A stretch of 42,575 nt of DNA from sequence record DRR378314_2505. The stretch is one strand, 5' to 3'. The first letter of the stretch is position 1, and each line of letters opens with the position of its first letter. A program made the position numbers and the translations under genes. The notes beneath the pieces are model-generated. The model was not told the DNA's origin, made no database searches, and was given only the letters and a program-made list of their open reading frames with translations. Positions 27,673 to 42,575 of this stretch are shown piece after piece.

Positions 27673-27723
27673 GGTGGTTCCCCGTAACGTTAAAAGTTGG
27701 CTCAGCGCCCGCTGGCTCAAGCG

Positions 27724-28047
27724 CTAAGCGGCGTCCAACGGCGTAATCCGCGACACCTCATCCTTAGCGGATTGCGACGCGGCCCATAAATCCACCGCGC
27801 GCTGCGCGTTAAGCCAGAACTCCGGTGAATTGCCGAACAAACGACCGAGCCGCAGCGCCATCTCCGGGCTGACCGCGCGGCGCTCGCGCAACAGTTCATT
27901 CACCGACTGCCGCGAAACGCCCAAACGCTCAGCAAGCTGCGCCACCGTCAGCCCATAGTCCGGAATGAAGTCCTCTCTCAGCATTTCGCCGGGATGCGTT
28001 GGCTTACGCTGGATGCCGGCGGTATTGGAAATCGTCATGTTAACCAC
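27724..28047 (-). CDS. higA: HigA antitoxin
   Basis: PTHPGEMLREDF, HTH, SPEMALRLGRLFGNSPEFWLNAQ. Confidence 0.92.
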   Translation of the reverse strand: MVNMTISNTAGIQRKPTHPGEMLREDFIPDYGLTVAQLAERLGVSRQSVNELLRERRAVSPEMALRLGRLFGNSPEFWLNAQRAVDLWAASQSAKDEVSRITPLDAA

Positions 28048-28053
28048 CTCTCT

Positions 28054-28335
28054 TTAATGGTAATCGCAGACCTCAACGTCATACGCATCGCCATCCTCAA
28101 AACGAAAGCAGATACGCCACTGATCGTTAATCGAAATGGCGTGCTGACCTTGTCGGTTACCGGAAAGCGCATGCAGTTTGTTACCCGGGGGCACCCTCAG
28201 GTCATCCAGACACGTCGCCAAATCCACATACTCAAGCTTACGCGCTGCCCTTGAGGCCACATCGGGAGGAAACTTCTTTGCCTTGCCTTTGGCATAGAGC
28301 TCCTGGGAACGCTTGTCCGTAAACGTCTTGATCAT
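28054..28335 (-). CDS. higB: HigB (RelE-family) toxin
   Basis: LRVPPGNKLHALSGNRQGQHAISINDQWRICF...DYH. Confidence 0.92.
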   Translation of the reverse strand: MIKTFTDKRSQELYAKGKAKKFPPDVASRAARKLEYVDLATCLDDLRVPPGNKLHALSGNRQGQHAISINDQWRICFRFEDGDAYDVEVCDYH

Positions 28336-28342
28336 GCCCACA

Positions 28343-28371
28343 ACCGTATTCTGTCACGTGACACTTGTCAA
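28343..28371 (-). promoter_or_regulatory. higBA sigma70 promoter with palindromic operator
   Basis: TTGACA-17 bp-TACGGT; perfect palindrome TGTCACGTGACA (28352-28363) in the spacer; ATG 7 nt after the -10. Confidence 0.7.
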
Positions 28372-29522
28372 CCAAGCTCACGGGGATGCTCCGCGACCAA
28401 ACTCTCCCGCGAAATCTCCCCAACCGCCCTGGCCCCAGTCAACGTCATCGCCACCTTCATCTCGCTGGCGATCAGGTCCAGCAGGTTGGCCACGCCCTGC
28501 TCGCCGGCGGCGGCGAGAGCGTAGACGAAGGGGCGGCCGAGCAGCACGCCGTCGGCGCCCAGGGCGAGCATGCGCACCACGTCCAGGCCGGAGCGGACGC
28601 CGGAATCCGCCAGGATCGTCAGGTCGCCCTGCACGGCGTCGGCGATGGCCGGCAGGGCCCGGGCCGAGGAGAGCACGCCATCGAGCTGGCGCCCGCCGTG
28701 GTTGGAGACCACGATGCCGTCCGCGCCGAACCGCACCGCCTCGCGGGCGTCCTCCGGATCGAGAATGCCCTTGAGCACCATGGCGCCCTGCCAATACTCC
28801 CGAATCCATTCCAGATCCCGCCAGCCGATGGACGGATCGAAGTTCTCGCCCAGCCAGCCGATGTAATCCTCCAGCTGGATGCGGTGGCCCAGATAGGCCG
28901 ACACATTGCCCAGATCGTGGGGCCGCCCGCGCAGGCCCACGTCCCACGCCCAGCGCGGGTGCGTCACCGCCTGCAGCACCCGCCGCCAGGCCGCGAACGG
29001 CCCGGACATCCCCGAATGCCGATCGCGATAGCGCGCCCCCGGCACCGGCATATCCACCGTGAACACCAGGGTCCGCACCCCCGCCGCCCAGGCCCGCTCC
29101 AGCGCGTTTTTCATGAAACCTCGGTCGCGCAGCACATACAGCTGAAACCACATCGGCCGCATCATCGCCGGCTGCACCTCCTCGATGGGACACACCGACA
29201 CCGACGACAACGTAAACGGCACGCCCCGCGACGCCGCCGCCCGCGCCGCCTGCACCTCGCCCCGCCGCGCGTACATCCCGGTGAGCCCCACCGGCGCCAG
29301 CGCCACCGGCAGGCTCACATCCTCCCCGAACCACCGCGCCGACAGATCCACCTCCCCCACCTCCTTCAACACCCGCTGCCGCAACGCCAGAGCGCGCAGA
29401 TCCGCCACATTGCGCGCCAGGGTGTGCTCGTCGTACGCGCCCCCGTCGATGTAGTGGAACAGGAACGGCGGCAGGCGGCGTTGGGCGGCGAGGCGGTAAT
29501 CGTGGGTGGAGGAGATGATCAT
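28368..29522 (-). CDS. lldD: FMN-dependent L-lactate dehydrogenase
   Basis: [46 protein letters not shown]. Confidence 0.92.
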
Positions 29523-29587
29523 GGTTGTCTCCTGGTGGGGTGGCGAACCGAGAAGCCCGAAGAGGAAGTATTCGAATTGCGTACGAA

Positions 29588-29818
29588 CTAAAGGCCCGCC
29601 TCACTGAACAATTGGGCAGCGGAGACATTCAACGCCCTGGCGATACGCAGGATGTTCGCCAGGGAGACGTTGCGCTCTCCTCGCTCCACCGCGCCGATAT
29701 AGGTGCGATGAATCCCAACCTCGGTGGCGAAGGCTTCCTGGGAAATACCGGCAGCCCGTCTCCGCTCCCGAATCACGGAACCCAGCTTTTTCTGTGCGTC
29801 ATCAATGTGAGTAGTCAT
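29588..29818 (-). CDS. XRE HTH protein of RM controller (C-protein) type
   Basis: SQEAFA...[22 protein letters not shown]-box directly upstream. Confidence 0.85.
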
Positions 29819-29837
29819 ATTTCAAATTGTTCTTATA

Positions 29838-29870
29838 GATGACTATAAATCTACACACTATGAGTAGCAT
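29838..29870 (-). promoter_or_regulatory. PvuII-type C-box (two operators with TGTA spacer)
   Basis: Minus strand ATGC-TACTCATAGTG-TGTA-GATTTATAGTC-ATC fits GACT-N3-AGTC-TGTA-GACT-N3-AGTC; ends 22 nt before the C gene ATG. Confidence 0.8.
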
Positions 29871-29928
29871 ATCCGGCCATCATATCCTATGATGACTTTA
29901 CGTATCATCGAAACTCATGGAGGGAATC

Positions 29929-30072
29929 ATGAGAAAGCGTAAGCCGAACATCGAAATCGGGCACTATCGTGGTAGCCGGTATTGGGGCGTTTGGGTTGAT
30001 TCGGAGCTTTTGGCTGTGGTGTGCTACCGAAAAGATGCTGAGGCGATAAAATCAGCGCTACTAAATGGTTGA
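29929..30072 (+). CDS. 47-aa hypothetical protein, missing from the ORF track
   Basis: GGAGGG RBS; MRKRKPNIEIGHYRGSRYWGVWVDSELLAVVCYRKDAEAIKSALLNG*. Confidence 0.6.
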   Translation: MRKRKPNIEIGHYRGSRYWGVWVDSELLAVVCYRKDAEAIKSALLNG

Positions 30073-30102
30073 AAGGATTGTTGCTAAAGGGGGAGAGGGG
30101 AC

Positions 30103-33100
30103 GTGTCGATTAATGAAACCGACATTCGGCAGTGGGCGGATCGTCATGAATGCCGTAGAAGTCTGCCAATACTAGTTCGTCGTTTAATCAGGGAGACAGC
30201 CGGGTCCCTATCGGCTTTTCGGTTCCCCGGGAATGATGCCGTCGACTTAAGCGGCCTTGACGGTCAAGTTGAGAATGAGATCGCGACGACCTGGGTGCCT
30301 CGCGGGCGAAGCGTGTGGGAAATGGGGAGTAACCACGATCCTCGGGCCAAGGCAGAAGGCGACTATAAAAAGCGAACCGCAGAAACGCCATTAGAAGTGC
30401 GTCAGGCCACCAGCTTCATATTCGTCACCCCCAGGCGGTGGAATACAAAGGATGAGTGGCTAGAAATGCACTGCCAAGAAGCCTCTTGGGCGTCTGTAAA
30501 AGCATACGACGCAATAGATCTAGAAACTTGGCTTGAAGAAGCACCAGTTACCACTCGATGGCTGGAAGAACTGATCGGGGTTGCCCATCCGGGCTTGATG
30601 ACGCCTCACGAATGGTGGAAACAATGGTCAACAGCTTCGAATCCGGCCATCTCCATGAAGCTAGTTTCAACACGAAGGCATAACGAACAGCAAACACTAT
30701 TATCACTTTTACGAGATGGCGAAGAATTTCTGCCAATACAAGCCGATGATAAGCAAGAGGCAGTGGCGTTTGTAATAGCATCATTGATCGAGGCAGATGC
30801 ACTTGATCTCTTAGACCGGAGCTTAGTATTAACGTCCAACGCTGCCGAAATCCAATCATCGCCAGCTGGCTCAATAATTATTTCTGACGTGGTGGAAGGC
30901 AATGAGCCAAATTTTGGTGACAGGCGAAAAATCACAATCATAAAAACCTATCCAAAAGGGCGCTCAGATGTACGGCAAGCCATCCAGCTCTCACACGTAC
31001 CTTCTGAGATCTTCCGTATCGAGCTGGAAGCCATGGGGCTAAGTCGGGACGAGGCAGCAAGCTGGGCTTTAAAGACTGGGCATTCCGTTCCAGTCCTGAG
31101 ACGACAGCTTTCCAAGGATCCTGACGTACGAACACCAACTTGGGCACGAAACCGCGCATCTGCCAAAATGCTGCTCCCATTTGCATTGTCTGGTTCTTGG
31201 GTCGAACGCGAGAACACTGGCGACGAAACAGTTCTAGAGTTGCTTGGGGAGCTAGGGGATGGAGAGGTGGAACGAATTCGTGATCAGCTTCTCGCTTTAA
31301 ATGACGCCCCAGTTGCTCGTTACGGAAACATAAACATCGTAGTTTCACAACTTGATGCTTTGTTTGCAGTAGGCCCTTTCATTGGGCTAGATGACCTTGA
31401 CCGTTTTTTTCAACTGGTACCTGAACTACTAGGAGATCGAGACCCAGTTCTCGACCTTCCACAAGACCAATGGTGGATGGCCAGCGTTCTCGGTAAGACT
31501 AGGGATTACTCCAACGCGTTACTCTCAGGCCTTAGCGATGCACTTTGTATCCTTTCCATTCACGGAAGGGAGATCTGTGGAAATAGACTCTCTGCTGATC
31601 TAGCGCGCCGTTCGGAAAAAGTAGTCCGCTCTCTAATGAAGAATAACGACGAGGACCGTTGGCTCTCCATCCGCGGCCATCTGAGAGAGCTCGCCGAGGC
31701 ATCGCCGGGTGCATTTCTCGACTGTCTCGAGGAGGAGCTTGGCAGGTCAGAGCCAACTATCCGAGCTATAATGGGGACCACCACTGGAGCGATTGGCGGG
31801 GAATGCCTCCGAACGCATTTACTGTGGGCACTTGAGTCGCTGGCCTGGCACGCGGAGTATTTCAAACGTGTGTTGGAGATTGTTTATAAACTTCGGGATA
31901 TTGAAACTGAAGATAACTGGACAAACTCTCCGAAATCCACGGCTAGAGCGCTTTTTCTCCCATGGTTACCCGCTACATCCGTTAGCGTAACTGAAAGGAT
32001 GGTGATTTTACGGGAACTATCGAAAATACATAGAAGGCATGCTATTGACGTTTGTATTTCTCTACTTCCAGGAGCAGGCCCCGATTTTGCGTCTAGAACA
32101 GCAAGGCCACGTTGGCGAGCACTAGAAATTGAGGTAACAGAGCCTACAAACGCGGACGTAAAGTATGCAGCTGAGGAAGCAAGTCACCTACTCCTAGACT
32201 TGGCCCCATTCGATAAAGAAGATCTCAAACAACTGATCGAGGTCACAACACTACTGCACCCAGACGATTTAAGCCGGCTTGTAAATGAAGTTGAGCGTTG
32301 GTCGGCCAAGTCTGATGATGAAGAAAAAGCCGAGTTAAGGCACGATCTTCGTCGACGAGATGTTATGCGTGCATACCAAGAAAATGAAAAGAACCAAGCA
32401 TTGGCTACTGCGATCCATCAGATGGAGGATTTTTTAGAGCCAGCGGATCCTAGCTTACGGCATCGATGGCTATTTGGTAGCCACCCTGTCGAATGGCGCG
32501 CCTTGGCCGAAGCTGAAATCGAAGGTAACTTGTCTTGGCAAGAAAGGGCTGCCCTATTGGAGGAGCGGAGGCAGGAAGCAATCTCAGAGGTTCAAGAATA
32601 CCTCGGGGAAGAGGCTATACTTCCATTTGCTCTCAGCACGCAGCAACCCGACCTAGTCGCGGAAACCCTAGTCCCGCATAACTCTCCAGCTACAACTGCA
32701 GGAAAATGGGCCAGCATAGCGTTTCAGGAGAAAGTTAATGAAAAATCAACTGCATTTCTTCGCCAGATCTTATGGAACACAAACCGAGAAAGCCTAATTG
32801 ACATGGGCAATTTACTTACTCATGAAGGACTACTCAGTCGGGCAGATAGCAGGGAGCGCTTTGCACAGCTCCTTCCTGGGTGTCGAGAGGGATGGGAGGC
32901 TGCTGAGTCTTTGGGAGACGACATAGCCTCATCATTTTGGCGTTCGGTCTCCATCCGTCTCTGGAATGATACCGAGCCACAAGCAGTGTTGTATGTAGTA
33001 GAAAAACTTCTTGAAGTCCAGCGCCCACGGTCAGCGCTTTTGGCTTTACAATTTCAACCCGACCGGCTTCCGCCCGAGCAATGGTCCCGCATCCTTCAAG

Positions 33101-33894
33101 CTGTCGCTCGCGGGGAAGAGCCGCATGCCCCCCTGCCCATTTCTTATCATCTTGACGAAATATTCATGCTGCTAGACAAGGCGCAGGGAATTTCAAATCA
33201 ACATATTGCTCACTTGGAGCTGCCTTTTATTCCTCTATTGTGCAACCATGGTCATCGCAACCATCGAAGAACTCTTGCTATCCACCATGAGCTATCACGC
33301 GATCCTGAGCTCTTCGTTCAACTCCTTTGCTGGCACTATAAGCGCAGAGACGGGGCGTTTGAGCCCGAGCAGAAGGAATTATCAGATGATAGACGTGAAT
33401 TTCTAGCAAGCCTAGCGCACCACACACTCAAGGGTTGGAAGGAGCTACCCGGCTGCCAAGCCGATGGGGAAATCAACGAGCAGGAATTTACTTCCTGGGC
33501 GGATGAAGCGTTAAGACGTGCGTCCAGCATGGACCGTAGAGAGGCTGGCGAAACCCATTTCGCCGAATTACTGGCACACTTTGCCCGTCAGCATCCATGG
33601 GAAGACTGGCTGCCTGACTGTGTGTTGCGCTTCTTGGATAGACAGGGCAATACCAGCCTCCGGGAGAAGTTCGAGATCGGTGTTCATAATGCTCGTGGAG
33701 CAACAATACGAGGGCCATACGATGGCGGTGAGCAAGAACGGAACCTAGCCGGCCACTATCGTGATCTTGCGGCACGATATGGAAACTCGTATCCCCGGGT
33801 GTCCGCGATGCTTATATCGATCGCAGAGAGTTACGAGCAGGACGCTCGTCACCATGATGAAAAGGCTGCAATTGGCGAGCGCTGGCACCCTTGA
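30103..33894 (+). CDS. 1263-aa protein, putative N-terminal restriction-endonuclease-like domain plus long helical region; candidate defence protein
   Basis: Uninterrupted ORF, lower GC than host genes; GLDG...WEMG...DYKKRT...FIFVTPR pattern; GTG start after a G-rich RBS. Confidence 0.7.
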   Translation: MSINETDIRQWADRHECRRSLPILVRRLIRETAGSLSAFRFPGNDAVDLSGLDGQVENEIATTWVPRGRSVWEMGSNHDPRAKAEGDYKKRTAETPLEVRQATSFIFVTPRRWNTKDEWLEMHCQEASWASVKAYDAIDLETWLEEAPVTTRWLEELIGVAHPGLMTPHEWWKQWSTASNPAISMKLVSTRRHNEQQTLLSLLRDGEEFLPIQADDKQEAVAFVIASLIEADALDLLDRSLVLTSNAAEIQSSPAGSIIISDVVEGNEPNFGDRRKITIIKTYPKGRSDVRQAIQLSHVPSEIFRIELEAMGLSRDEAASWALKTGHSVPVLRRQLSKDPDVRTPTWARNRASAKMLLPFALSGSWVERENTGDETVLELLGELGDGEVERIRDQLLALNDAPVARYGNINIVVSQLDALFAVGPFIGLDDLDRFFQLVPELLGDRDPVLDLPQDQWWMASVLGKTRDYSNALLSGLSDALCILSIHGREICGNRLSADLARRSEKVVRSLMKNNDEDRWLSIRGHLRELAEASPGAFLDCLEEELGRSEPTIRAIMGTTTGAIGGECLRTHLLWALESLAWHAEYFKRVLEIVYKLRDIETEDNWTNSPKSTARALFLPWLPATSVSVTERMVILRELSKIHRRHAIDVCISLLPGAGPDFASRTARPRWRALEIEVTEPTNADVKYAAEEASHLLLDLAPFDKEDLKQLIEVTTLLHPDDLSRLVNEVERWSAKSDDEEKAELRHDLRRRDVMRAYQENEKNQALATAIHQMEDFLEPADPSLRHRWLFGSHPVEWRALAEAEIEGNLSWQERAALLEERRQEAISEVQEYLGEEAILPFALSTQQPDLVAETLVPHNSPATTAGKWASIAFQEKVNEKSTAFLRQILWNTNRESLIDMGNLLTHEGLLSRADSRERFAQLLPGCREGWEAAESLGDDIASSFWRSVSIRLWNDTEPQAVLYVVEKLLEVQRPRSALLALQFQPDRLPPEQWSRILQAVARGEEPHAPLPISYHLDEIFMLLDKAQGISNQHIAHLELPFIPLLCNHGHRNHRRTLAIHHELSRDPELFVQLLCWHYKRRDGAFEPEQKELSDDRREFLASLAHHTLKGWKELPGCQADGEINEQEFTSWADEALRRASSMDRREAGETHFAELLAHFARQHPWEDWLPDCVLRFLDRQGNTSLREKFEIGVHNARGATIRGPYDGGEQERNLAGHYRDLAARYGNSYPRVSAMLISIAESYEQDARHHDEKAAIGERWHP

Positions 33895-34140
33895 GAAGCT
33901 CATCGCGTTGGTCTTTTTCTAAAAGCCTATCAACTGCCGTACATTCCAGTGAATGTGTCCGTGGCTTGAGGTAGAAATTTGCCCAATTTATCTCTACCGA
34001 TTCGAAGCATGAGAGCTCATAGTGTGTAGTGATGGTTTTCATTCGCTCCGTCACCGGCTCGGACTCGCCCAGCCCACCACATGGGCCTCACGGCCAACCC
34101 GCAAAGCGCTGGGAACTAAAATATCATCTGCAAGGCATCC

Positions 34141-34929
34141 TTAAATCGCATCTGCAGCTTGCCATCCCTTGTGGGTTAGCTCGAAAATTTCGCCCTTCTC
34201 GCCGAGTCCCTTTATCAATCCGTACGCTACTAGTTCCCCTAAAGCATCATCATACAGCGCAAAATCACGAGAGCCTTCAGAGCCAAACGATTGATTGCCA
34301 GCATGAATAGTTCTATTGCCTATAGACTGGGACTTTAGGATTGTTCCTTTTTTGTTCTCCGAGGCCGCTTTCAAGATCTCGAAGGCTTGCCGAGAGAGAT
34401 TATATGCGGTCGGTTCTCCGACCGACACTTGACTTTGAAGTTTCTCAGAAAGCTGATCACGCTCCCTGCGCAAATTTTCGAGTTGAGCCGTCAACTTCTC
34501 CTTAGCTTCCTCATCCCCAAGTCCTGCCACTTCCTCGTCCCGCTTCGCCCTTTCAATGAGCTCCTTTTCCTTTACAGCAAAGAGGTTGGACCGCGAATTT
34601 TCAAGCTCTGTCTGCCGAATTGTCTTGTTGTGCTCTGCTTCGAGACGAAGGTTTTCAATTAGCCCAGCGGGTTTTCTTGAAATGAGCCCAAAAGCATACT
34701 GAATCCAATGCTTTGAGGCCGCCACAAAAGCACCGACTAGGAGCGGAAAAACCACCAATGTGTAGTGGCTGGTCACACCATCAAAAGCGGCGAGGCGTTC
34801 TTGAGGTGTTCCCCTAGTCATCACCAACAAGAATATGCCGCGCCAATTGAGAGCAAAGAGCGCAAGAGCCGCATACCCAAAATACGGAGTTTTGATTCTT
34901 GAATTGACCGCATCGATCACCTCCTTCAT
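34141..34929 (-). CDS. Hypothetical membrane protein (2 TM, coiled coil, C-terminal wHTH-like)
   Basis: Two N-terminal hydrophobic segments, E/K/R-rich heptads, ...LVAYGLI...FELTHKGW. Confidence 0.7.
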   Translation of the reverse strand: MKEVIDAVNSRIKTPYFGYAALALFALNWRGIFLLVMTRGTPQERLAAFDGVTSHYTLVVFPLLVGAFVAASKHWIQYAFGLISRKPAGLIENLRLEAEHNKTIRQTELENSRSNLFAVKEKELIERAKRDEEVAGLGDEEAKEKLTAQLENLRRERDQLSEKLQSQVSVGEPTAYNLSRQAFEILKAASENKKGTILKSQSIGNRTIHAGNQSFGSEGSRDFALYDDALGELVAYGLIKGLGEKGEIFELTHKGWQAADAI

Positions 34930-34987
34930 GGCCTTTCATTCCTCCTACCCGTCAATACGCTCTTGTGAATGCCAGAGCGCCAACCCA

Positions 34988-35190
34988 AATATGCAATAAA
35001 TACGCCGGCGCCGTATTTTTCTTGTTTGATGTCCCCTGACAAAAAATAAGACCAGAAAAAGAAGCCGCTGACAAACGTCCTCTCCTGATATCTTTGCTAA
35101 TCTTCTCTCCTCAAATTAAAAGGCCGCCAACGCCCAGGCGTCAAAGGCCTCTTAAGTAAGCCGTTACTAATTAGCCAAACCAAATAGATC
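34988..35190. repeat. Diverged copy B of the guaA-downstream ~200-bp element
   Basis: Collinear blocks shared with 42339-42548: CGCCGGCG, TCCCCTGAC, AAAATAA, ACCAGAAAA, AGCCGCT, ACAAAC, CCTGATATCTT, AAAAGGCCGCC, TTAAGTAAGCC, TTACTA, AGATC. Confidence 0.85.
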
Positions 35191-35239
35191 CCAGGTCAGC
35201 CCCTATGCTGAGGGAATCCAGCTATTCCCCCCCGGCAAC

Positions 35240-35460
35240 GGCAACCCAGCAATCCGCCTATCCTTCTCCGACGGCCCCCCAGCGCCTGCAGCACCATCTC
35301 GGCAGCAATATGATCGGCGTGTTCCATCTCGCCGTCTTCCACGAGCAGCTTCATGGCGCCCGAGGTGGCGGCGATGACTATGCTCATTGCCATAACCTCG
35401 TGGGCGTAGCGGAAGTCGCCTTGCCAGCGGCCGGCGCGGGCATAGATCCGCAGGGCAGCG
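35240..35460 (-). pseudogene. Possible remnant of a TetR-family C-terminal domain
   Basis: Host-like GC; GDFRY...IVIAATSGAMKLLV...HIAAEMVLQALG looks like TetR C-terminal helices; no HTH or clear start; bounds approximate. Confidence 0.35.
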
Positions 35461-35550
35461 CCCAGCAGTTGTGGCCGACTGCACAGCTCAGAGGCGCCCA
35501 CGGGTGGGGCCGAGAATCATTCGGAGCGGCACTGGGGAATACGTACTCGC

Positions 35551-35847
35551 TTAATCCAGCAGCCTTTCCGGTGCATCCATGTACTCATGCAGCACACGAA
35601 CCACTAACACCTCCGCCTCGAGCACTCGGTAGAACACCGCGTGATGCTCAACCTGCAGTCGGCGATACCCGGGAAGAACATGGGCGTAGTCGGTCCCAAG
35701 CAAGGGGTGCTGAATCAGCGGCCTCATGCCCGCCTCCAGCTGATCAAGGTAGCCATCCGCCTGATCCGCACCCCACTCTTCGCAGGTATACACCCAGATG
35801 TCGATGAGGTCGGGTTCCGCCTTTGGCGTAAGGCTCAGCGTGCGCAC
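35551..35847 (-). CDS. parE: ParE (RelE/ParE) toxin
   Basis: DLIDIWVYT.EEWGADQADGY, GYRR, HAVFYR, VVRVLH. Confidence 0.9.
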   Translation of the reverse strand: MRTLSLTPKAEPDLIDIWVYTCEEWGADQADGYLDQLEAGMRPLIQHPLLGTDYAHVLPGYRRLQVEHHAVFYRVLEAEVLVVRVLHEYMDAPERLLD

Positions 35848-36101
35848 TACTCCGGCGCCTTCACCCGCTTACGGCCAGCCGCCTTGATCGCCGCCATATC
35901 GACTGGCTTGGCCTCGCCGCTTGCTTCACCCTCAACCAGGGCCTGCCTGAGCGTGGCAAGCCGTTCCTGGGCTTGCTGGTCCTGCCGGATGAGATGGCGG
36001 ATATACTCACTGTCGTTGCCGAACTGGCCGTCTTCGATCCGGCTTTTTACCCAGCCGTCCTGTTGTTCGGTGAGGGTGATGGTCTTCCGGTGCATGCTCA
36101 T
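35847..36101 (-). CDS. parD: ParD antitoxin (RHH)
   Basis: KTITLT, GQFGNDSEYIRHLIR, LRQALVEGEASG. Confidence 0.9.
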   Translation of the reverse strand: MSMHRKTITLTEQQDGWVKSRIEDGQFGNDSEYIRHLIRQDQQAQERLATLRQALVEGEASGEAKPVDMAAIKAAGRKRVKAPE

Positions 36102-36126
36102 AATGGGTACTCCTGAGCCCCAAACA

Positions 36127-36143
36127 GTATGACAATATCATAC
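36127..36143. promoter_or_regulatory. Probable parDE operator
   Basis: Inverted repeat GTATGA-N5-TCATAC about 25 bp upstream of parD. Confidence 0.55.
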
Positions 36144-36758
36144 CAAGCTTTTGCGCCGGATCAATTCCGTCTACCAACGGGCGGCAGCAGACACTGTGTT
36201 TGTTCAGGCACCCTCAAAAGCCTTTGAGCCCGTCATCATCGGTGACGGTCTCACGGCCTTTTGATCCTGCCTATGCGCAGCATTGATTGCGCATAGGATT
36301 GATCGTTGCGCATAGGCGTAAAAGCCTTTGGAATATTCCGTCTGGCAGGCTGTTGTCGGCCAGTGCATGAGTATCATCGGCGTCCGCATTTCGAGCGGAA
36401 AGGCGTCATAACGGCATCATCCATTGGCGGCAACGCACCCCTGGAGTGTGGGTAGAGCGCTTGTCGTAAAGAGGCGGAATTGCATTTTCGACCTCAAGTC
36501 CGTACCAAGAAGAATCAATGCGACGCGAATCGGAAAGAAGAGCAGCTTCATGGTGACCTGCTGTTGGTACTAATCCAGACCTGATCTGCTGGCATGCAAC
36601 AGTTTTGGAATGGAGCACACCTTGTGTAGCGGCATGCATTTTCCGTACTTCTCGATGGCTATCTTCTGGAGTTAGCTCGAAGTACCCCGTATGACTTCCA
36701 GCATCACATGCCCGCAAGTACCAAGTTTAAATATCGGCTGTTCAGTATTTATTATAAG

Positions 36759-36867
36759 GCATGACGCCTTGCCTACAGGCCGGATAGAGCAGAGTAAGCT
36801 TTTGATAGTTTGCGCAGCTAAACCACAATCTTGCGCGTAGCTGGTTCCGAGCACAGCAATTTTAAGT
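36759..36867 (-). repeat. Degenerate attC-like site 3
   Basis: Starts 3 nt after the stop: ACTTAAA...GCTGTGCTCGGA...internal hairpin TTGTGGTTT/AAACTATCAA...AAGGC-GTCATGC; both core triplets altered. Confidence 0.45.
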
Positions 36868-36870
36868 TCT

Positions 36871-37842
36871 CTAATCGCTATTCTTTCTAACGATTTCGGC
36901 TAACAAAGCATCTATTTGGGATATATAGTTTACTTGATTAAAATTTGGCAACGACTCTCTTTTTCGGATATATTGGTGTAATAGACCATCTGAAATTTTT
37001 CTACAGCCTTTCTCAAGATGATTGAACGCTTCTTTTAAAGATTTTCCAGGATAACTAGCGGAAACCTCGCCAAATGTTGAAAACCCTAGAGAAGGAGGAA
37101 CATGATCCAGAATCACCCTCAATAGAGCACCTATCGAAAAATAGTTTCCATTTTCGTAAGCCGAATTTATTTCTCTACATATTTGAACCAACCTAGAGAA
37201 ATCAAAGTTCACAGACTCGATACGTTCCAGGTCTTTTATCCGAGATTTGTCAATGTAACTAATAGTGGTTCTGGACTCTGAAGTTTCTTCTTTTCCTATA
37301 TTTCCAACGATAGAATCTGTCCAGATCATCCCGTCCTCAGGATATTCAGAAGGCTCCCTTATTCGGTGAATAGTATCTTTGAAGGCTTTAGATCTAATTA
37401 TCGATTCTGAAGGCTGAACCCAGGCGCCGTCTGCTTCGGTCAATGCTGTAGTATAGCTGCCAAATATGCTCGATTGGACCATGTAACCTAATGATTTAAC
37501 AACATCACCTTTTGGCAACTCAAGGCGTTTGGCCAAATCATCGACAGATATTTTATGCTCTGGATTCTCAATATAGAAGTTACGAAGAAATTGAAATATA
37601 AACTCACATCTTAAAAGCAATAAATTTGCTTCTTTAGATTCACTTTCTAACTCTAGGAGCGCAGGCAAGCATACGTAGTATTTTTGATCCCTCCTATCAA
37701 CATAACGCTTTGATTCCAATTCATCCAATAGATCTAACTTATCGTGATTTTTAGCTCTGTACTGGATCGCATTAACCCCTTTTGAGCCAGCCACGCTAGC
37801 TTCAAAAAGATCTACCAAAGATTTTTTTAATTGCTCTTGCAT
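36871..37842 (-). CDS. Hypothetical protein, wHTH-like N-terminus + HEPN/DUF4145-like C-terminus
   Basis: Very AT-rich; ISVDDLAKRLELPKGDVVKSL helix-turn-helix; EINSAY..GNY...ALLRVILD...RKISDGLLH. Confidence 0.65.
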   Translation of the reverse strand: MQEQLKKSLVDLFEASVAGSKGVNAIQYRAKNHDKLDLLDELESKRYVDRRDQKYYVCLPALLELESESKEANLLLLRCEFIFQFLRNFYIENPEHKISVDDLAKRLELPKGDVVKSLGYMVQSSIFGSYTTALTEADGAWVQPSESIIRSKAFKDTIHRIREPSEYPEDGMIWTDSIVGNIGKEETSESRTTISYIDKSRIKDLERIESVNFDFSRLVQICREINSAYENGNYFSIGALLRVILDHVPPSLGFSTFGEVSASYPGKSLKEAFNHLEKGCRKISDGLLHQYIRKRESLPNFNQVNYISQIDALLAEIVRKNSD

Positions 37843-37865
37843 TAATCAGTACTCGACCTAGTTTC

Positions 37866-37928
37866 GCCTGATGCTTGAACTCTGGCCGCCGGCCAACGTC
37901 CGGCGGCCGCTCGAACAACTTGTTGGAT
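37866..37928 (-). repeat. Degenerate attC-like site 2
   Basis: R'' ATCCAAC, 5-nt spacer, GTTCGAGC, 9-bp stem GGCCGCCGG/CCGGCGGCC, then TCAAGC-ATCAGGC (decayed R'). Confidence 0.55.
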
Positions 37929-37993
37929 AGCACCTCTCGGATCTTCGGAGGCAATAGGTTCGCGTTCACTCCAACTTACTCGCAGTTGAAGTA

Positions 37994-39850
37994 CTACGGC
38001 CGCATGGAAACCGGCAAGAAGCCATACCGTCCCGCAGAGCTCCTCGAGAAGTGGACGTGGTTGCACGACGCTTGCACATCGGCGGGAGGAGCCACGTTCT
38101 CGAAGACGACCACCTGGCCAAGCGCACTCGACGAGCAGAGGTTCCGATAGAAGGCATCCTTCACCGAGGTGGCGACCTCACCATCGTCGTCGACGTCGGC
38201 CTCCTTGTATGGGTTCAACGGAGTATCCAGGACGACGAAGCCAGGGTGGCCCTTGTTCGCCCCGAGTGCCTCTTGCATAAGTCCGATCACGTATCCGGCG
38301 CACATGACCGCACGCACGCCCTTGCCATGACTCGTCCGCCTCCGGCCATTTACAACTAGATCAGCGCTTTTCTCGTCAAATGCCACTGTAATGTCGTCAG
38401 CCACTCTCCATGCGATGAGGAGCGCCTTGATACGCGAGCATACGTCGGACATGGTGTTCGCTGTGAGCTTGATGAACTCCAACTTCTCCCCCTTGTCGCG
38501 CGTGGCATCCAGGTCGAGCATTTGGCTCTTCAGCGAGTCGATCTGGGCGCGCAGTTGCTCCACCCTGACGAACGCCCCGTAGCTCCCCTGGATCGCGCGG
38601 AGTTCATTGGCCGTGGCTCGGACTTTCGCGGCAAGGGCTCCCTCAATCTCTTCCGAGATCCCCTGGATCGCTGCATCGACCTCTCTAAGGCTCGCCGCCA
38701 AGACACGCTGCTCGGTGGACAGCTGGTCAGCTGCAACGCGAAGTTCCACTCGGAGTTGCTGGACCTTGGCCGCTTCCGCCAAAGCTGCCCGGAGCGTAGA
38801 CTCGGGCTCGTGCGCATCAGCATGCCGCTGATGTTCTGGTCTAGCGCCACAGTAGTCGCACGATCTGTCGCCGTACATCTGCAGGAGATAAGAAGACTCT
38901 CCCATGGCCTCAAGCCGAAGCAGATCAGACTCGTAGTGCGCGTCGAGCAACGAAGCACGTGCGAGCATCCCGTCGAGCTCACCTAACCGTCCGTTTTGCT
39001 CGCGTTGCTCGTTCACGAGCTCTCCTCGCCTCGACTCAGCGGCGCGCAGATCAGCCAAGGCCGTGCTCGACAGCTCGCCCAGCTCACACAGCTTGGCTTC
39101 AAGTTGGGACAGCACCTCTGGCGTCGCATCTATGTTCTCAAGGAGCTCGTCAAGCGCGGCTTGATCACGTTCGAGCAGATCCTTGATCGCCTCCTTCCTT
39201 CCGGCCAACCGGCCCGCGGATGTCTTCGGATCTTCTGGCTGCACGATCCCGGAGTCATCAACGCCCGTCAGCAACATCCGAATCGTACTTGCGGCGGCCG
39301 TGTTGCCAGTGTTCTGGGAACCGTAGAGGGGAGAGCGCTTCGCAATGATTCGCCCTTCATCGACGAGCAGGGCCTTGGATAGGACCCTGAAGCTGATCTT
39401 CTGAGTCTTCCCGCTGTCGTTCTTGCGGACTCGCCTGCCATCAAGGCCACACAGGCCAAGCAAGAAGCCAGAGACGGACTCCTTGGCGTTGGTGGTCTCA
39501 CCCAGTACATTCCACTCTTCATCGGCTTCGAGTGCATCATCAATCCGCCCGCGAAAGAGTCCGATCTTCCCACCAACGAGCGCACGCTTCAGGGTGTAGA
39601 ACTGGCCGTCCGCCGTTTGGATACAGAGATAGGCGACATCGTACAGTCGCGCTTGCGGGATCTCCTCGGGAGGCGTGCCAGCCCCCATCACGAAGTCGAT
39701 ACAGCTCAGCGCGTACGACTTTCCTGTGTCCGACGCCCCATCAATGACGTTGAGCCCCGACGCGAAAACGAGACTTCCGGGCACCTGACCAGGGCCACAG
39801 AGACGAAGCTCCCGAAGCTCGAACCCGCGTCGAGCGCTCCCGTTCGTCAT
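37994..39850 (-). CDS. SMC/Rad50-like ABC ATPase of ABC-3C/Lamassu system (LmuB-like)
   Basis: GLNVIDGASDTGKS Walker A, coiled coils with central CDYC hook, HGKG signature, VVLDTP Walker B. Confidence 0.85.
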   Translation of the reverse strand: MTNGSARRGFELRELRLCGPGQVPGSLVFASGLNVIDGASDTGKSYALSCIDFVMGAGTPPEEIPQARLYDVAYLCIQTADGQFYTLKRALVGGKIGLFRGRIDDALEADEEWNVLGETTNAKESVSGFLLGLCGLDGRRVRKNDSGKTQKISFRVLSKALLVDEGRIIAKRSPLYGSQNTGNTAAASTIRMLLTGVDDSGIVQPEDPKTSAGRLAGRKEAIKDLLERDQAALDELLENIDATPEVLSQLEAKLCELGELSSTALADLRAAESRRGELVNEQREQNGRLGELDGMLARASLLDAHYESDLLRLEAMGESSYLLQMYGDRSCDYCGARPEHQRHADAHEPESTLRAALAEAAKVQQLRVELRVAADQLSTEQRVLAASLREVDAAIQGISEEIEGALAAKVRATANELRAIQGSYGAFVRVEQLRAQIDSLKSQMLDLDATRDKGEKLEFIKLTANTMSDVCSRIKALLIAWRVADDITVAFDEKSADLVVNGRRRTSHGKGVRAVMCAGYVIGLMQEALGANKGHPGFVVLDTPLNPYKEADVDDDGEVATSVKDAFYRNLCSSSALGQVVVFENVAPPADVQASCNHVHFSRSSAGRYGFLPVSMRP

Positions 39851-40347
39851 GGCGTCCTCCCCGCCCCACGATACTCGGCGAACTGCCCACCCCATTGGTC
39901 GAGCTCGGTACTGACGTATCGGGTGATCTCACTGGTCTCCAGCTGCCCGAAGCTCACCGCGATCCAGCTGGCGCGGTTCCGCAGGGCTTCGACATACCTG
40001 CTGCGCAGCGTGTCCAGGAAGCAGCCGGCCCGATCCGTCGCGCCGTAACTGAAACCATTCGCGTCCACCGTCACTGAGACAAGACCACGCCTGGCGTACA
40101 AAGCGAGGCCAGGTTCCAGCACGGCACGCCGCACGAGAACCTCCGCTCCGCGTTGTGGCACAGCAGGATGGAGGCTCTCGGGACCTCCGTCCACGTCGGC
40201 CGAGTGGACCAGCAGGTAGTCGAGCAGAACGAGCCGCTGAAGATCGTGGTGGTGACGGTCAAGCTCGACGAGGACACACAGCGAGCGCAGCCCAAGCTCG
40301 ACTGGCGAGTTAAACACCCACGATGTTGTCGCGTCCGGCGTACCCAT
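39847..40347 (-). CDS. ABC-3C middle component (LmuC-like)
   Basis: FNSPVELGLR...LQRLVLLDYLLVHSAD...SLHP; translational coupling on both sides (TGATG, ATGA). Confidence 0.8.
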   Translation of the reverse strand: MGTPDATTSWVFNSPVELGLRSLCVLVELDRHHHDLQRLVLLDYLLVHSADVDGGPESLHPAVPQRGAEVLVRRAVLEPGLALYARRGLVSVTVDANGFSYGATDRAGCFLDTLRSRYVEALRNRASWIAVSFGQLETSEITRYVSTELDQWGGQFAEYRGAGRTP

Positions 40348-41420
40348 CACTGAACCCACTTGAGTCGAGCGTTGTCGGCGAGCTGGTGGCAGATGCCAGC
40401 CTTGTCTTTGACCCCGAGCACCTGTCGCAGGGCGTTGTTCGTCGGGTCAAGCTGCTGCGCTACTCCCGTCGCGGCCTTAACCCGTTGAAACCCATCGGCG
40501 TGGCTAATGTCCTCCACGGTGTCGATGACTGCATCGAAGAACTCCTCCTGAAGATCTTCAAATTGCCCAGGGGGAAGGGTGTCGCGGGAGAAATTACGAA
40601 GTGATTCCGCATGAAAGAATCGCTCGCGGCTCCGCAGCAAATGCCGATGGAGAGCCTCGTGCGCGGCCAAGCTCGCGACGCTCAGGGCCACGCCGGTGTG
40701 ATCGGAGTACGCCTCGAGGAGTCGACCGATGTATAGGCTCTCGAACTTTTCCTCGTCGATGTGCGGGACTTTGGCTGGCGGGCGAGGCGGTAGGCCGCCT
40801 GGAAATCGAGCGGCATGCCAGCGCGTCAACGCATGTTGCTCGATGATATCCATCGGCGGGACGTAGCTGACGATGCTGAAGTCGAAGCTCTCGACGAAGT
40901 TCAGGAGCTCGCCGGTCAGCGGAACTTTCTTCGTGGAGGTGATGTGCTCCTCGCACTTTCTCGCCCAGTCCTTGATGAGCCGCGCGCGGAGCTCCTCCGG
41001 CTCCTTGAAAAGCAGCGACAGACTGTTCCCCGCCCCCTGGGGAGCCACGAAATAGTACTCGGTTGGGGCCGAAAACGCCTTCTCGTAAACGTAGTAGCAG
41101 AGCTTCCCCAGCTCGAGGACAACCTGGTTCGGCTGCAGCGGGTCCTTATAGTGCTTGCACTGGTAGTTGTGCCACTCATCGTCGGAGACAAATGCCACAA
41201 CGTCGCGGCCGAGGTCGCCCGCTCCGCCACAGCGCTCAACTCGTTGGTACCTGCTCTTCAGGCTGTGGGCCCATTCCAGAGCGAAGTCCTCCCACTGGCC
41301 AGGGGAAAAAATGCGCAAGAGGTCGATGGCGGGCACAATCGTGCTACTCGCGGGCGTTGGCACCACGGTGTCTACTGTGGGCTCCTTCAGCGGCTGCGTC
41401 GTTGCCTTCAAAACGCTCAT
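40347..41420 (-). CDS. Mrr-like nuclease effector with ABC-3C C-terminal domain (LmuA-like)
   Basis: WEDF...GGAGDLGRDV...YQCKHY nuclease motif; C-terminal RERFFHAESL...GICHQLAD...LKW. Confidence 0.82.
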   Translation of the reverse strand: MSVLKATTQPLKEPTVDTVVPTPASSTIVPAIDLLRIFSPGQWEDFALEWAHSLKSRYQRVERCGGAGDLGRDVVAFVSDDEWHNYQCKHYKDPLQPNQVVLELGKLCYYVYEKAFSAPTEYYFVAPQGAGNSLSLLFKEPEELRARLIKDWARKCEEHITSTKKVPLTGELLNFVESFDFSIVSYVPPMDIIEQHALTRWHAARFPGGLPPRPPAKVPHIDEEKFESLYIGRLLEAYSDHTGVALSVASLAAHEALHRHLLRSRERFFHAESLRNFSRDTLPPGQFEDLQEEFFDAVIDTVEDISHADGFQRVKAATGVAQQLDPTNNALRQVLGVKDKAGICHQLADNARLKWVQ

Positions 41421-41456
41421 AATCGGAGTCCTCGCTCTTTCCGCCCACGCTCGGCT

Positions 41457-41534
41457 GTCCAACGCAGAGCGCACCGGTGGCCTTTGCAGAGCGAAGCGGC
41501 GTAATGGACATCCGTATGACGCGAACTGTCAGAC
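41457..41534 (-). repeat. attC-like site 1 (78 bp), AAC changed to GAC
   Basis: GTCTGAC-N5-GCG(T)CATA-CGG(A)TGTCC...GGCCACCG-GTGCGC-N5-GTTGGAC: R''/L''/L'/R' geometry with two extrahelical bases, 2 nt after a stop codon. Confidence 0.75.
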
Positions 41535-41536
41535 AT

Positions 41537-42295
41537 TTACACCCCGACTCGATTCCTTGTGGCAGCTGAAAACCCCAAATTGGTGAGATAAATCGGAAAC
41601 TCTGATTTGATAGCTTCGTGGCACCTATTCACTAAAAATTCAACATCTTCAACAGACTTCTTGGCAGACGTTTCACGTATTAGAAGAGGTGATATTTTTG
41701 GCCTATCACAGTTGTGAATACAGTCATGTCTACGCTGAAAAATCATATCGTATCGTTCTTTGACTTTATCCAATGCATCTTTTCGAGCCTTACCTTTCTG
41801 AGAGGGATTTAACTTTCGATAGTCTGTCGCGGCAATGCCAAACATTCTCTGTTTCGATTCACGGTGGGTAATCCATGGCTCAATAGAATCGGCTACCAGT
41901 AATTTTCGGCCTCTCCTAAAAAAATGGTTGAAAAGCTGCTGTATTTTTCCAAGCGAGAGCACATTTTCTTCTTCTATGAGCTCTCTAGCTGCCATTCGCC
42001 ATCGCCACCCACCATTCGCCTGGCGAAGCAAAGCCGTTACCGGAAGTTTTAAATTATTTAACCTGTCTGGCATTTCTATGCCAGGTTCAATTTCCTTTGC
42101 TTGAATGGCCTTGGCCACCAAATCTGCATACGCGTCGGAAAAATAAGCATCACACGCACCAACCCCCATCATCCAACTAGCACGGAGAATATCATCTTTG
42201 ACCATGCCTTCAGCTTGCAACTCAGCATGACCAAGTAGACCTCGAGCACGGGCAATATCTTCGGTAAAATGGCTCATTGCGGTGTCAAGAAGCAC
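41537..42295 (-). CDS. HEPN-like putative RNase
   Basis: DILRASWMMGVGACDAYFSD N-terminal helix and RHDCIH (Rx4H); GTG start after GGAAGGAG; AT-rich. Confidence 0.7.
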   Translation of the reverse strand: MLLDTAMSHFTEDIARARGLLGHAELQAEGMVKDDILRASWMMGVGACDAYFSDAYADLVAKAIQAKEIEPGIEMPDRLNNLKLPVTALLRQANGGWRWRMAARELIEEENVLSLGKIQQLFNHFFRRGRKLLVADSIEPWITHRESKQRMFGIAATDYRKLNPSQKGKARKDALDKVKERYDMIFQRRHDCIHNCDRPKISPLLIRETSAKKSVEDVEFLVNRCHEAIKSEFPIYLTNLGFSAATRNRVGV

Positions 42296-42310
42296 TTGCT
42301 CTCCTTCCCT

Positions 42311-42327
42311 GTCTAACAAATTTTAGG
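42311..42327 (-). other. attI-like / cassette 5' core site
   Basis: CCTAAAA-TTT-GTTAGAC directly before the RBS; resembles class 1 attI CCTAAAACAAAGTTRRRY, one base shorter. Confidence 0.5.
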
Positions 42328-42338
42328 ACGCCGGCTCG

Positions 42339-42548
42339 AATATCCAATGAACCCGCCGGCGTCACATCCCTTTTCTTCATTTCCCCTGACGCAAAATAAA
42401 ACCAGAAAACGCAGCCGCTTACAAACTCTACCGCAAGCAGTCCCCTGATATCTTGACCAACCCGCGTCCCAAAAACGCAAAAAGGCCGCCGACGCTCCCG
42501 CGCCGGCGGCCTTTTAAGTAAGCCCTTACTACCAGCCTAAATCAGATC
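42339..42548. repeat. Copy A of the ~200-bp element abutting the guaA stop
   Basis: Collinear with 34988-35190; similarity ends at the guaA stop codon. Confidence 0.85.
42480..42515 (-). terminator. guaA terminator (bidirectional)
   Basis: AAAAGGCCGCCG...CGGCGGCCTTTT. Confidence 0.8.
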
Positions 42549-42575
42549 ATTCCCACTCAATCGTAGCCGGCGGCT
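42547..42575 (-). CDS. guaA: GMP synthase, 3' end only
   Basis: Translates PPATIEWE*, the conserved GuaA C-terminus. Confidence 0.92.

Follow-up and report, generated by a model that had tools for sequence, protein, structure and literature searches.

Repeats behind guaA in Alloalcanivorax and Alcanivorax that probably join a terminator to an orphan attI-type site at the edge of foreign gene blocks

We analysed a stretch of 42,575 nt from sequence record DRR378314_2505 (the window; window coordinates refer to this whole stretch). The 3' end of guaA, the gene of GMP synthase, lies on the minus strand at one edge of the window, and a variable region of lower GC content (30061-42547) begins directly behind it. 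A segment of about 240 bp, here called R, occurs twice in this region: copy B follows guaA and copy A lies some 7 kb further on. Each copy heads a block of foreign genes. Block 1 (35196-42313, ~7 kb) lies between the two copies and holds an unknown open reading frame (ORF), a Lamassu anti-phage system, a second unknown ORF, the toxin-antitoxin pair ParDE and the remnant of a TetR-family gene; block 2 follows copy A. From comparison with related genomes we conclude that each copy of R is probably a terminator joined to an orphan capture site of the integron attI type, the integrase of which has been lost, and that the copies mark the points where foreign blocks were inserted. Coordinates of the features are collected in Table 1.

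The repeat and its two classes

The initial annotation, made from the letters of the window, had described the two copies as a collinear but diverged direct repeat. Pairwise alignment bears this out (76% mean column identity), as does a profile built from 29 distinct copies of relatives, which matches the window at 42326-42564 (E=1.9e-69) and 34977-35201 (E=3.7e-51). A repeat finder reports a two-copy family covering the right-hand 76 nt at 72% identity. The profile finds no third full copy in the window, only reverse-strand echoes of the palindromic terminator, and no degenerate third copy was found at the distal end of the variable region, where the boundary lacks a site. Of the limits first given for the repeat, the collinear core stands; the unit, however, extends ~12 nt further left, to a TAAC at 42314-42317, and in relatives the unit to the right of copy A runs on into a TetR gene at its 3' end, the remnant of which is window 35196-35435.

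Direct reading recovers the motifs claimed for each copy. Two TC(C/T)CCTGA motifs are present in copy B (42382-42389 and 42441-42448) and in copy A (35032-35039 and 35082-35089), and the palindrome AGTAAG-CC-(C/G)TTACT stands at 42518-31 in B and at 35155-68 in A. The 18-mer around this palindrome matched 19 stretches in a genome collection, 14 of them from Alcanivorax or Alloalcanivorax. The hairpin had been taken as intact in A and decayed in B, and here the reverse holds: a terminator scan finds a 16-pair stem in B and no terminator in A, and the left inverted repeat is also better preserved in B. With an A-run and a T-run flanking its stem, the guaA terminator looks bidirectional. Each copy is followed by an AT-rich gene on the minus strand, as had been noted, in the sense that GC content falls to 0.45 in the region of the 260-aa ORF behind copy B and to 0.51 in block 2, compared with 0.65 in the core.

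The outer part of R holds an imperfect GC-rich inverted repeat around a 13-nt spacer, AATATCCAATGAA (window 42339-42351), whose columns are at least 84% conserved across full and half-length copies of R, more than those of the arms. The covariation analysis proposed in the initial annotation as a check for a structured RNA gave no covariation: the share of paired cells is 72.7%, compared with 72.3% after shuffling, and the observed score is reached in 83 of 500 shuffles. The inverted repeat is therefore conserved as sequence and not as structure, and together with its spacer it is probably a protein-binding site in DNA, not a folded RNA or single strand. A structured RNA that controls the downstream cargo, be it a small RNA or a 5' leader in which a hairpin and GGA motifs are conserved, would agree with the GGA carried by the spacer on the minus strand, with the TC(C/T)CCTGA motifs, which read TCAGGGGA, and with a hairpin that folds in all versions tried. 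Besides the missing covariation, however, an Rfam search of 27000-42575 (E<=1) reached no family, its best match (E=0.15) covering the terminator hairpin only; the folding z-scores of copy B are only -1.5 to -1.75, and no promoter was found in copy B. We consider an RNA of this kind extremely unlikely.

Across the genomes compared, R appears as a ~240-bp module confined to Alloalcanivorax/Alcanivorax. Copy B matches 16 of 19 genomes of the genus group, most of which carry several copies on one contig, 3-15 kb apart, with 2-5 copies downstream of guaA; there are five R matches within 35 kb in G006 and four within 23 kb in G018. The guaA ends in the relatives adjoin tblastn matches to a C-terminal GuaA fragment, which itself matches Pfam GMP_synt_C (E=5e-44). 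Fourteen genomes share a common order: guaA with copy R1, variable DNA, a tetR gene with copy R2 (sometimes two or three times) and, last, a conserved lldD/XRE flank. A shorter variant, R3 (profile columns 1-193), follows tetR-R2 in four genomes. In related genomes the element follows guaA or a tetR gene and precedes variable DNA; no PF00589 gene was found in or near the guaA arrays of the 5 of 5 relatives checked. An exact-motif scan of the genomes of 185,579 species returned 15 matches, all within this genus group. A 3057-bp contig (L036) of a metagenome-assembled genome labelled Verrucomicrobiota also has a copy of R (profile E=2.2e-35); the simplest explanation is that an Alloalcanivorax contig was mis-binned.

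A maximum-likelihood tree of 38 copies splits them into two clades, one of 18 TetR-linked copies (support 100/99) and one of the guaA-linked copies (16) together with R3 (4); one of the 18 escaped regular-expression labelling ('other') and was assigned by tblastn. For 38 of 38 copies the class of R tracks the gene upstream. Copy B groups with the guaA-linked copies (R1), sharing 86-87% identity with those adjacent to guaA in 6 relatives; copy A groups with the TetR-linked copies (R2), on a long branch. Six genomes share, at 89-92% conservation, a metabolic cluster of 6.9 kb with tetR-R2 at its end, so that R2 is partly inherited vertically. Since the classes follow upstream gene and clade across species and R2 is partly vertical, the two window copies are old paralogues and not products of insertion. 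R1 and R2 thus appear to be old paralogous platforms standing in tandem after guaA, not duplications from the intervening insertion.

The outer edge and the integron integrase

The similarity between copies of R ends at the same place: the cargo gives way to (C/T)TAACAGG(T/A/C)ATTAGG, followed by the GC-rich inverted repeat. When 50 copies are aligned, the three columns outside the edge have their majority base in 16, 19 and 21 of 50 copies, and the columns going inward from it in 30, 42, 43, 46 and 46 of 50; the step, from 16-21 to 42-47 of 50, falls at (C)TAAC. TAAC stands at the edge in 36 of the 50 distinct copies. Read in the direction of the cargo, the heptamers at the edge start with GTT in 41/50 copies and fit GTTRRRY in 15/50; the next two positions on the cargo side retain their purine or pyrimidine class in 41/50 and 35/50. 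GTTRRRY, with crossover between G and TT, is the core site of integrons. The core of copy B, GTTAGAC, agrees with an attI-type site and that of copy A does not; in copy B the crossover would fall between 42317 and 42316. In most copies the first cargo gene is co-oriented, with a ribosome-binding site and start 15-60 nt past the edge, as judged by eye.

The outer part of R is not restricted to the guaA arrays. A 15-nt motif from the spacer of the inverted repeat occurs outside these arrays in 4 of 5 genomes searched, and profile columns 1 to ~105-148 match three further types of locus: one adjacent to ubiD (five copies, including a pair in G003 with 4.5 kb between them), a second (three copies) and a third (two copies). 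In each of these types one flank is conserved and the DNA beyond the TAAC edge is variable. The left half of R is therefore present at at least 4 locus types, with up to ~8 copies per genome. The description of R as an element downstream of guaA thus holds for R1, but the left half also occurs at no fewer than three (>=3) other conserved loci per genome. The spread over locus types and the copy number could also point to a small non-autonomous mobile repeat, akin to a miniature inverted-repeat transposable element (MITE), scattered through the genome irrespective of its neighbours. Such a repeat does not agree with copies at orthologous positions across species, with one conserved and one variable flank and no insertion into otherwise conserved DNA. 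Terminal inverted repeats and target duplications were not seen in R, the copy number is low, and the matches of the exact-motif scan are confined to this genus group. A MITE-like origin is the faintest of possibilities. Readings of R as an Xer/dif-like site or a Tn7-like end were weighed by eye only and dropped once the link to an integron integrase appeared.

At the second of these locus types a truncated integron integrase gene (intI) starts ~45 nt past the inner end of the site and reads away from it. The relic in G011 (L076:4999-5508, 169 aa) matches Pfam Phage_int_SAM_4 (2e-31) and NCBIfam TIGR02249, 'integron integrase' (2.4e-43, profile positions 3-133). Directly before its start stands a CTGT-N8-ACAG box, which we take to be of the LexA-box form. 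In five loci a site resembling R lies within ~100 nt upstream of a relic intI (E=1e-13 to 2e-25, columns 1-105 to 1-148), as matched by a profile built from guaA-array copies only. In G018 an ORF of 340 aa scores 387.9 bits against the TIGR02249 cutoff of 265; the seventh intI-positive genome has two fragments that are only ~50% identical. The G018 gene (L081:967-3202, contig 2) is the sole near-full-length intI in the genus sample and is interrupted near codon 5 by orfA/orfB of an IS3-family insertion sequence (IS), shortly after which the contig stops. The window differs from a complete integron, in which intI stands beside the attachment site: the relics lie at another locus. The loss of an integrase supposed in the initial annotation is thus right in spirit, the tyrosine recombinase being the integron integrase, but its gene belongs elsewhere.

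For comparison outside the genus we examined the seven closest integrons with usable upstream DNA among 80 loci encoding relatives of the G018 integrase. They belong to Marinobacter (three), Serpens, Halomonas and Halopseudomonas (two), and their integrases are 53-64% identical to it and full-length or nearly so. The motif YAACAG-NN-AYTAG is found 150-240 nt upstream of intI in 7 of 7 of these loci, at the position of the junction between attI and the first cassette. The profile built from R has no match at the foreign loci, and the likeness is therefore limited to the motif and its position. The locus of Serpens gallinarum (L091:1-3990), which served as outgroup for the attI motif, is a chromosomal integron with 7-8 homogeneous attC sites of ~70 nt, spaced 0.4-1.1 kb, and a LexA-type box before intI.

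Behind the sites of relatives we found small cassettes. An all-against-all comparison of the cargo at 50 sites recovered shared small cassettes and no large block common to two site types. The ubiD-type site of G001 and a site of another type in G019, for instance, share a small gene that starts exactly at GTTATAT and is bounded by imperfect TAAC...GTTA palindromes. A regular expression for attC combined with a filter for arm complementarity gave 15 matches, compared with 3 on reversed and ~3 on shuffled sequence, and a whole-site hairpin, with TAAC paired to GTTA across a short unpaired spacer, is the minimum-energy fold in 4 of 8 candidates. A covariance model of attC, trained on 20 candidates, replaced the plain expression. 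Over 459,570 bases it yields 59 matches at E<=1 and 37 at E<=0.005, of which 17 lie outside the training set. All of the 37 (37/37) lie on the strand that the orientation of the nearest R predicts. On the cargo side of R or half-R, attC is present within 1.5 kb at 17 of 47 sites and within 3 kb at 19 of 47. The guaA-adjacent R1 heads cassettes of ~0.3-1 kb in G010, G009, G003 and G004, as do internal R1 copies in G018 and G015. The half-site, folded as single-stranded DNA, gives no attC-like whole-site hairpin and is therefore read as a double-stranded site of the attI type and not as attC. In the available text of a preprint by Loot et al., attI is described as recombined in the form of double-stranded DNA. 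The proposal in the initial annotation of a conserved platform for the capture of cassettes was essentially right, given the attI-type homology, the GTT-core boundary and the attC cassettes behind sites in relatives. Behind the intI-adjacent site of G011 (L076:1997-4241), DUF1883-TIR, SLATT and ThsB-like TIR proteins are encoded in succession, separated by attC; they appear to be Thoeris-like or CBASS-like parts carried as integron cassettes.

A simpler account would have R as a mere terminator or regulatory segment copied by duplication of gene clusters, with cargo swapped through homologous recombination between guaA, tetR and R, and with a likeness to integrons that has no function. The conservation of the tetR-R2 cluster in six genomes agrees with it. 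So do the tetR-R2 copies within one genome, which are 85-90% alike and thus sufficient for exchange, a breakpoint in the window between parDE at 88-90% identity and the tetR 3' end with R2 at ~77%, and the lack of attC in the window. It does not predict, however, that 41 of 50 copies end at a common base which is that of the GTT core, nor that the first cargo gene starts just past the edge, nor that correctly oriented attC sites follow 17 of 47 sites, nor that the same segment precedes relic intI genes. Exchange of this kind as the whole explanation is unlikely.

In the explanation that we favour, the gene-proximal half of R would be the intrinsic terminator of the upstream gene (guaA for R1, TetR for R2) with a small palindrome, and the far half an orphan attI-type site with intergenic DNA of the integron platform. 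An integron integrase encoded elsewhere in the chromosome would have inserted incoming DNA at the GTT core, on the outer edge of R. It would since have been reduced to fragments in those relatives that retain traces, except for the one copy hit by an IS. Insertion at the core by the integrase would explain why, at nearly every copy, unrelated foreign genes start bases past the core and read away from it. In the window, R1 would retain a plausible core at the head of block 1, and R2, eroded, would head block 2. That the integrase made the junctions of the relatives' cassettes is likely; for the junctions of the large blocks in the window, its authorship is about evenly balanced. Because the window has neither attC nor integrase, its blocks are not canonical cassettes and their route of insertion is unproven.

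Several observations weigh against this explanation. Traces of intI, with the relic fragment as query, were found in 7 of the 19 genomes of the genus and not in the other 12, and the window encodes no integrase (best tblastn match E=0.70). The R box of copy B departs from the consensus, AACAGGTATTAG, at 4 of its 12 positions, and in copy A the junction heptamer is ACAAGAG, with the GTT core lost. The plain regular expression for attC is barely above chance (37 matches, compared with 32 on reversed and 12-22 on shuffled sequence), and the candidates that trained the covariance model were picks of this expression from the same loci. No attC lies within 3 kb at 28 of 47 sites. In the window the model has 0 matches at E<=1; with its filters off, it returns only one at E=8.6, on the wrong strand and inside copy A. 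Copies of R share descent, so that counts over them are not independent. A scan for the sigma-70 consensus reports no promoter for copy B. Finally, there are 6-8 attI-type copies per genome, compared with the usual one attI per intI.

The scan also leaves the promoter part of the platform idea unsupported. By eye, a conserved TTGTAA/TTGTCA-17 nt-TGgTTTTAT can be read on the minus strand, the -10 hexamer lacking A at position 2, and could be a promoter reading into the cargo in the manner of the Pc promoter of integrons; the promoter that the scan reports for copy A is not this one. If so, the attI-type site might drive transcription of the first cargo gene. R1 may still be a usable site in this genome, and blocks between two R sites might be movable as attI-bounded units. 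Block 1, lying between R1 and R2, has this layout in structure only, the core of R2 being decayed. Integrons are normally described with one attI per intI. A bolder possibility, which we put forward tentatively and hold to be rather doubtful, is that one decaying integrase served many orphan attI-type platforms (at least 4 locus types, up to ~8 copies per genome, the tandem platforms behind guaA among them), and that defence blocks of several kilobases, such as the Lamassu-ParDE block of the window, move as attI-bounded 'mega-cassettes' by attI x attI recombination with little or no attC. In the literature searched, which did not extend to subscription journals and closed supplements, we found no description of multiple orphan attI-type sites, nor of integrons in this genus.

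Integration at guaA and the cargo of the window

Insertion of islands into guaA appears as a second process in these genomes. Four internal R1 copies (Table 1) still carry exactly the last 19 bp of guaA, altered by synonymous differences, and AT-rich DNA follows abruptly; two further internal copies keep more than 110 bp of guaA. The 19-bp remnant appears to be what an integration into the guaA 3' end has left behind. In G002, 51 kb separate the R1 copy from the true end of guaA; DNA with DUF2274, resembling an integrative and conjugative element (ICE), lies in between, and it and a Lamassu operon adjoin the remnant. In G006 a fragment encoding the 219 C-terminal residues of GuaA, with a partial R (L048:13319-14114), is found 5 kb downstream of the intact guaA-R1, and between the two lies a block with a 1241-aa YobI-like P-loop NTPase. 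The initial annotation had cited guaA 3' ends as integration sites of islands, and the accessible text of one source describes guaA as attB of integrative mobilizable elements (10.64898/2026.01.12.698999). Judging from these junctions, island integration at the guaA 3' end is evidently real in the genus and separate from the origin of the window copies. Gamma-Mobile-Trio islands, considered as possible guaA-targeting elements, were dropped: the text of the preprint on them has 0 occurrences of guaA.

The published attB, the 19-bp remnants in four relatives and the G002 and G006 arrangements all favour the origin first proposed for the window copies, as arms of the attL/attR type left by successive tyrosine-integrase islands that targeted the guaA 3' end and later lost their integrase. 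In the window, however, copy A follows a TetR remnant and lacks any remnant of guaA. A and B belong to different cross-species clades (100/99), and hence predate the insertions in this genome; they are not hybrids from a single crossover. Nor does a repeat of ~240 bp at 76% identity resemble a duplicated att core. The sharp boundary common to the copies lies at the far end of R and not at guaA, and no PF00589 gene was found in or near the arrays of the five relatives checked, or in the window. The window thus shows neither repeats that include a guaA 3' core nor an island integrase, and we regard island arms as a very unlikely origin. Because guaA remnants occur in relatives and not at copy A, the island model is real in the genus but not the cause of the window copies.

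The first cargo gene of block 1, the 260-aa ORF, has no match in Pfam, NCBIfam or PADLOC. Behind it LmuA, LmuC and LmuB form a Lamassu system in one operon. PADLOC finds nothing for the 323-aa ORF. G006 and G018 contain parDE-tetR modules to which the parDE region is 88-90% identical, but 313 bp of tetR are missing from the window relative to them; a full-length TetR homologue (L051:17280-17915) matches TetR_N and TetR_C_40. At 35430-35435 the similarity to G006 and G018 breaks, from 88-90% identity on the parDE side to ~77% over the tetR 3' end and R2, and this break appears to be a scar of recombination or deletion. For the two ORFs of block 2, PADLOC yields only PD-Lambda-4_A (E=1e-5), and their atlas neighbours are clusters of 'hypothetical protein'. 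Block 2 was found in 0 of the 19 genus genomes searched. Block 1 was likewise not found in the 19, except for a parD-proximal piece of 160-347 bp that is matched in 3 of them. The cargo behind the R sites of relatives is also rich in defence and toxin-antitoxin genes.

Two genes outside the variable region are recorded as side observations. At 24917-27304 (minus strand) a protein of 795 aa combines a Schlafen-group-3 helicase domain (Pfam 1.3e-106) with an S24 peptidase at its C-terminus in one fusion; PADLOC reports PDC-S41 (1.2e-19) and weak AbiO and Nhi matches, and the gene, a candidate for defence, lies in high-GC DNA. At 21467-22717 (minus strand), in a core-like part of the window, lies a HipA-like kinase toxin gene (HipA_C 3.3e-50).

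Table 1. Features of the window and, in the last four lines, R1 copies of relatives that retain 19 bp of guaA
Feature	Coordinates	Strand	Remarks
guaA (GMP synthase), 3' end	42548..42575	minus	stop is the complement of 42548-42550; reads ...IEWE*; gene continues past the window edge
Copy B of R (R1, guaA-linked class)	42314..42547	minus	terminator and putative attI-type site
Palindrome AGTAAGCCCTTACT	42518..42531	.	between guaA stop and terminator; conserved in R1 and R2 (29-copy alignment)
guaA intrinsic terminator	42480..42515	minus	16-pair stem, then T-run (terminator scan)
Distal part of R1	42314..42465	minus	homologous to integron attI/intergenic platform region; profile columns ~1-148
Imperfect GC-rich inverted repeat	42327..42363	.	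12 + 12 nt around the 13-nt spacer
Junction / R box	42314..42325	minus	...ATTTG, then TTAGAC across the junction; heptamer 42317->42311 fits GTTRRRY
First cargo gene of block 1, ORF of <=260 aa	41537..42319	minus	co-oriented with guaA; start ~20-40 nt past the junction
Lamassu (ABC-3C) anti-phage system	37994..41474	minus	PADLOC; Pfam CTD6 and MC2
LmuA	40347-41474	minus	PADLOC 8.8e-114
LmuC	39847-40359	minus	PADLOC 1.9e-48
LmuB	37994-39895	minus	PADLOC 2.4e-156
323-aa ORF	36871..37842	minus	AT-rich stretch, GC ~0.38-0.42; Pfam gives only sub-threshold MarR_2
ParD antitoxin	35847-36101	minus	Pfam ParD_antitoxin 4.7e-13
ParE toxin	35551-35847	minus	Pfam ParE_toxin 1.9e-19
TetR-family gene, 3' remnant	35196..35435	minus	~60-80 codons; 313 bp missing at 35430-35435 relative to G006/G018
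Copy A of R (R2, TetR-linked class), decayed	34977..35195	minus	eroded terminator stem, degraded inverted repeat, no TAAC/GTT core at left end
Block 2 cargo, 4.9 kb	30061..34976	both	two uncharacterised ORFs
262-aa ORF of block 2	34141-34929	minus	no known family
1263-aa ORF of block 2	30103-33894	plus	no known family
Conserved distal flank, end of variable region	28368..30056	mixed	28391-30056 shares 93% identity with the far array ends of G006, G015 and G018
51-aa ORF	29917-30072	plus	distal flank
XRE HTH gene	29588-29818	minus	Pfam HTH_3
lldD	28368-29522	minus	NCBIfam LldD 3e-220
R1 with 19-bp guaA remnant (G018)	L052:11911-12170
R1 with 19-bp guaA remnant (G015)	L053:15750-16000
R1 with 19-bp guaA remnant (G008)	L068:6139-6390
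R1 with 19-bp guaA remnant (G002)	L055:4150-4405

Comparison with known systems

An integron, as usually described, has a single integrase and a single attI followed by a series of small attC cassettes, and search software relies on intI and attC to detect it. In this genus an attI-type site seems to have multiplied and to have outlived its integrase. It would form a fixed 'socket' behind housekeeping genes (guaA, near ubiD, and others) at the edge of variable DNA rich in anti-phage systems. If these sockets are or were substrates of an integrase, they would offer a concrete mechanism for some of the defence hotspots that lack one, and searches based on attI would reveal remains of integrons that current tools miss. 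Should the reading with many attI sites be true, such an architecture, unseen by finders based on attC, could explain part of the defence-island hotspots of other bacteria. For the window itself, the repeat would be annotated as a terminator with an attI-type relic, and the DNA that separates the copies or lies past them as acquired cargo (Lamassu, ParDE and unknown genes).

The geometry and definitions of the integron platform used here follow the accessible parts of PMC4889954 and 10.1101/2022.09.11.507474. Compared with a chromosomal integron, in which intI, attI and the Pc promoter are followed by an attC array, R is alike in that its outer half is homologous to the site adjacent to relic intI, in its GTT-core boundary, in the close and co-oriented first cargo gene and in the attC cassettes of relatives. 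It differs in having no adjacent intI, in its several attI-type copies per genome, some of them in tandem, and in its fusion with a terminator that belongs to a convergent housekeeping gene. The cargo in the window, moreover, consists of multi-gene blocks of 5-7 kb, on both strands and without the attC that marks the cassettes of a complete integron.

A close published category is that of integron remains without an integrase, clusters of two or more attC sites with no intI nearby (CALIN) and the related class In0 (PMC4889954, accessible text). Arrays of relatives, for example in G010, G009 and G018, contain at least two attC sites after R and no intI nearby, whereas the window contains no attC and its recognisable element is an attI-type site. 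In the part of that source available, CALIN are defined by attC only, and attI, unknown for most integrons, was not searched for. Because the definition rests on attC and the window has none, the feature described here is invisible to it.

DNA bounded by attI instead of attC has been described in the accessible part of PMC12901181 (2026), where an attI1-aadB-attI1 architecture was excised and inserted by IntI1, so that attI-bounded cassettes are functional for IntI1. Block 1 of the window resembles these delta-attI-type cassettes in being bounded downstream by a putative attI-derived site and not by attC. Those cassettes, however, are single resistance genes of class 1/2 mobile integrons, whereas the units here, putatively mobile, are chromosomal, measure 3-15 kb and carry defence or metabolic genes. 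If our reading is true, attI-bounded cassettes would extend from clinical mobile integrons to chromosomes and to multi-gene blocks.

With the islands at guaA 3' ends (integrative mobilizable or conjugative elements; 10.64898/2026.01.12.698999, text accessible in part) the window shares its neighbourhood, and relatives show the 19-bp guaA remnants; the window repeat differs from island ends in containing no guaA sequence, in its ~240 bp at 76% identity and in the lack of an island integrase. Integron cassettes that carry anti-phage defence have been described in the accessible texts of 10.1101/2024.07.02.601719 and PMC12614218. As there, defence genes here adjoin integron-type sites, with Lamassu in the window and TIR, SLATT and ThsB-like, AAA_15/21 and McrBC genes, among others, in relatives. 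The published cassettes, as far as these texts go, are compact, single and equipped with attC, whereas the Lamassu system of the window comprises three genes in a block that is not a cassette.

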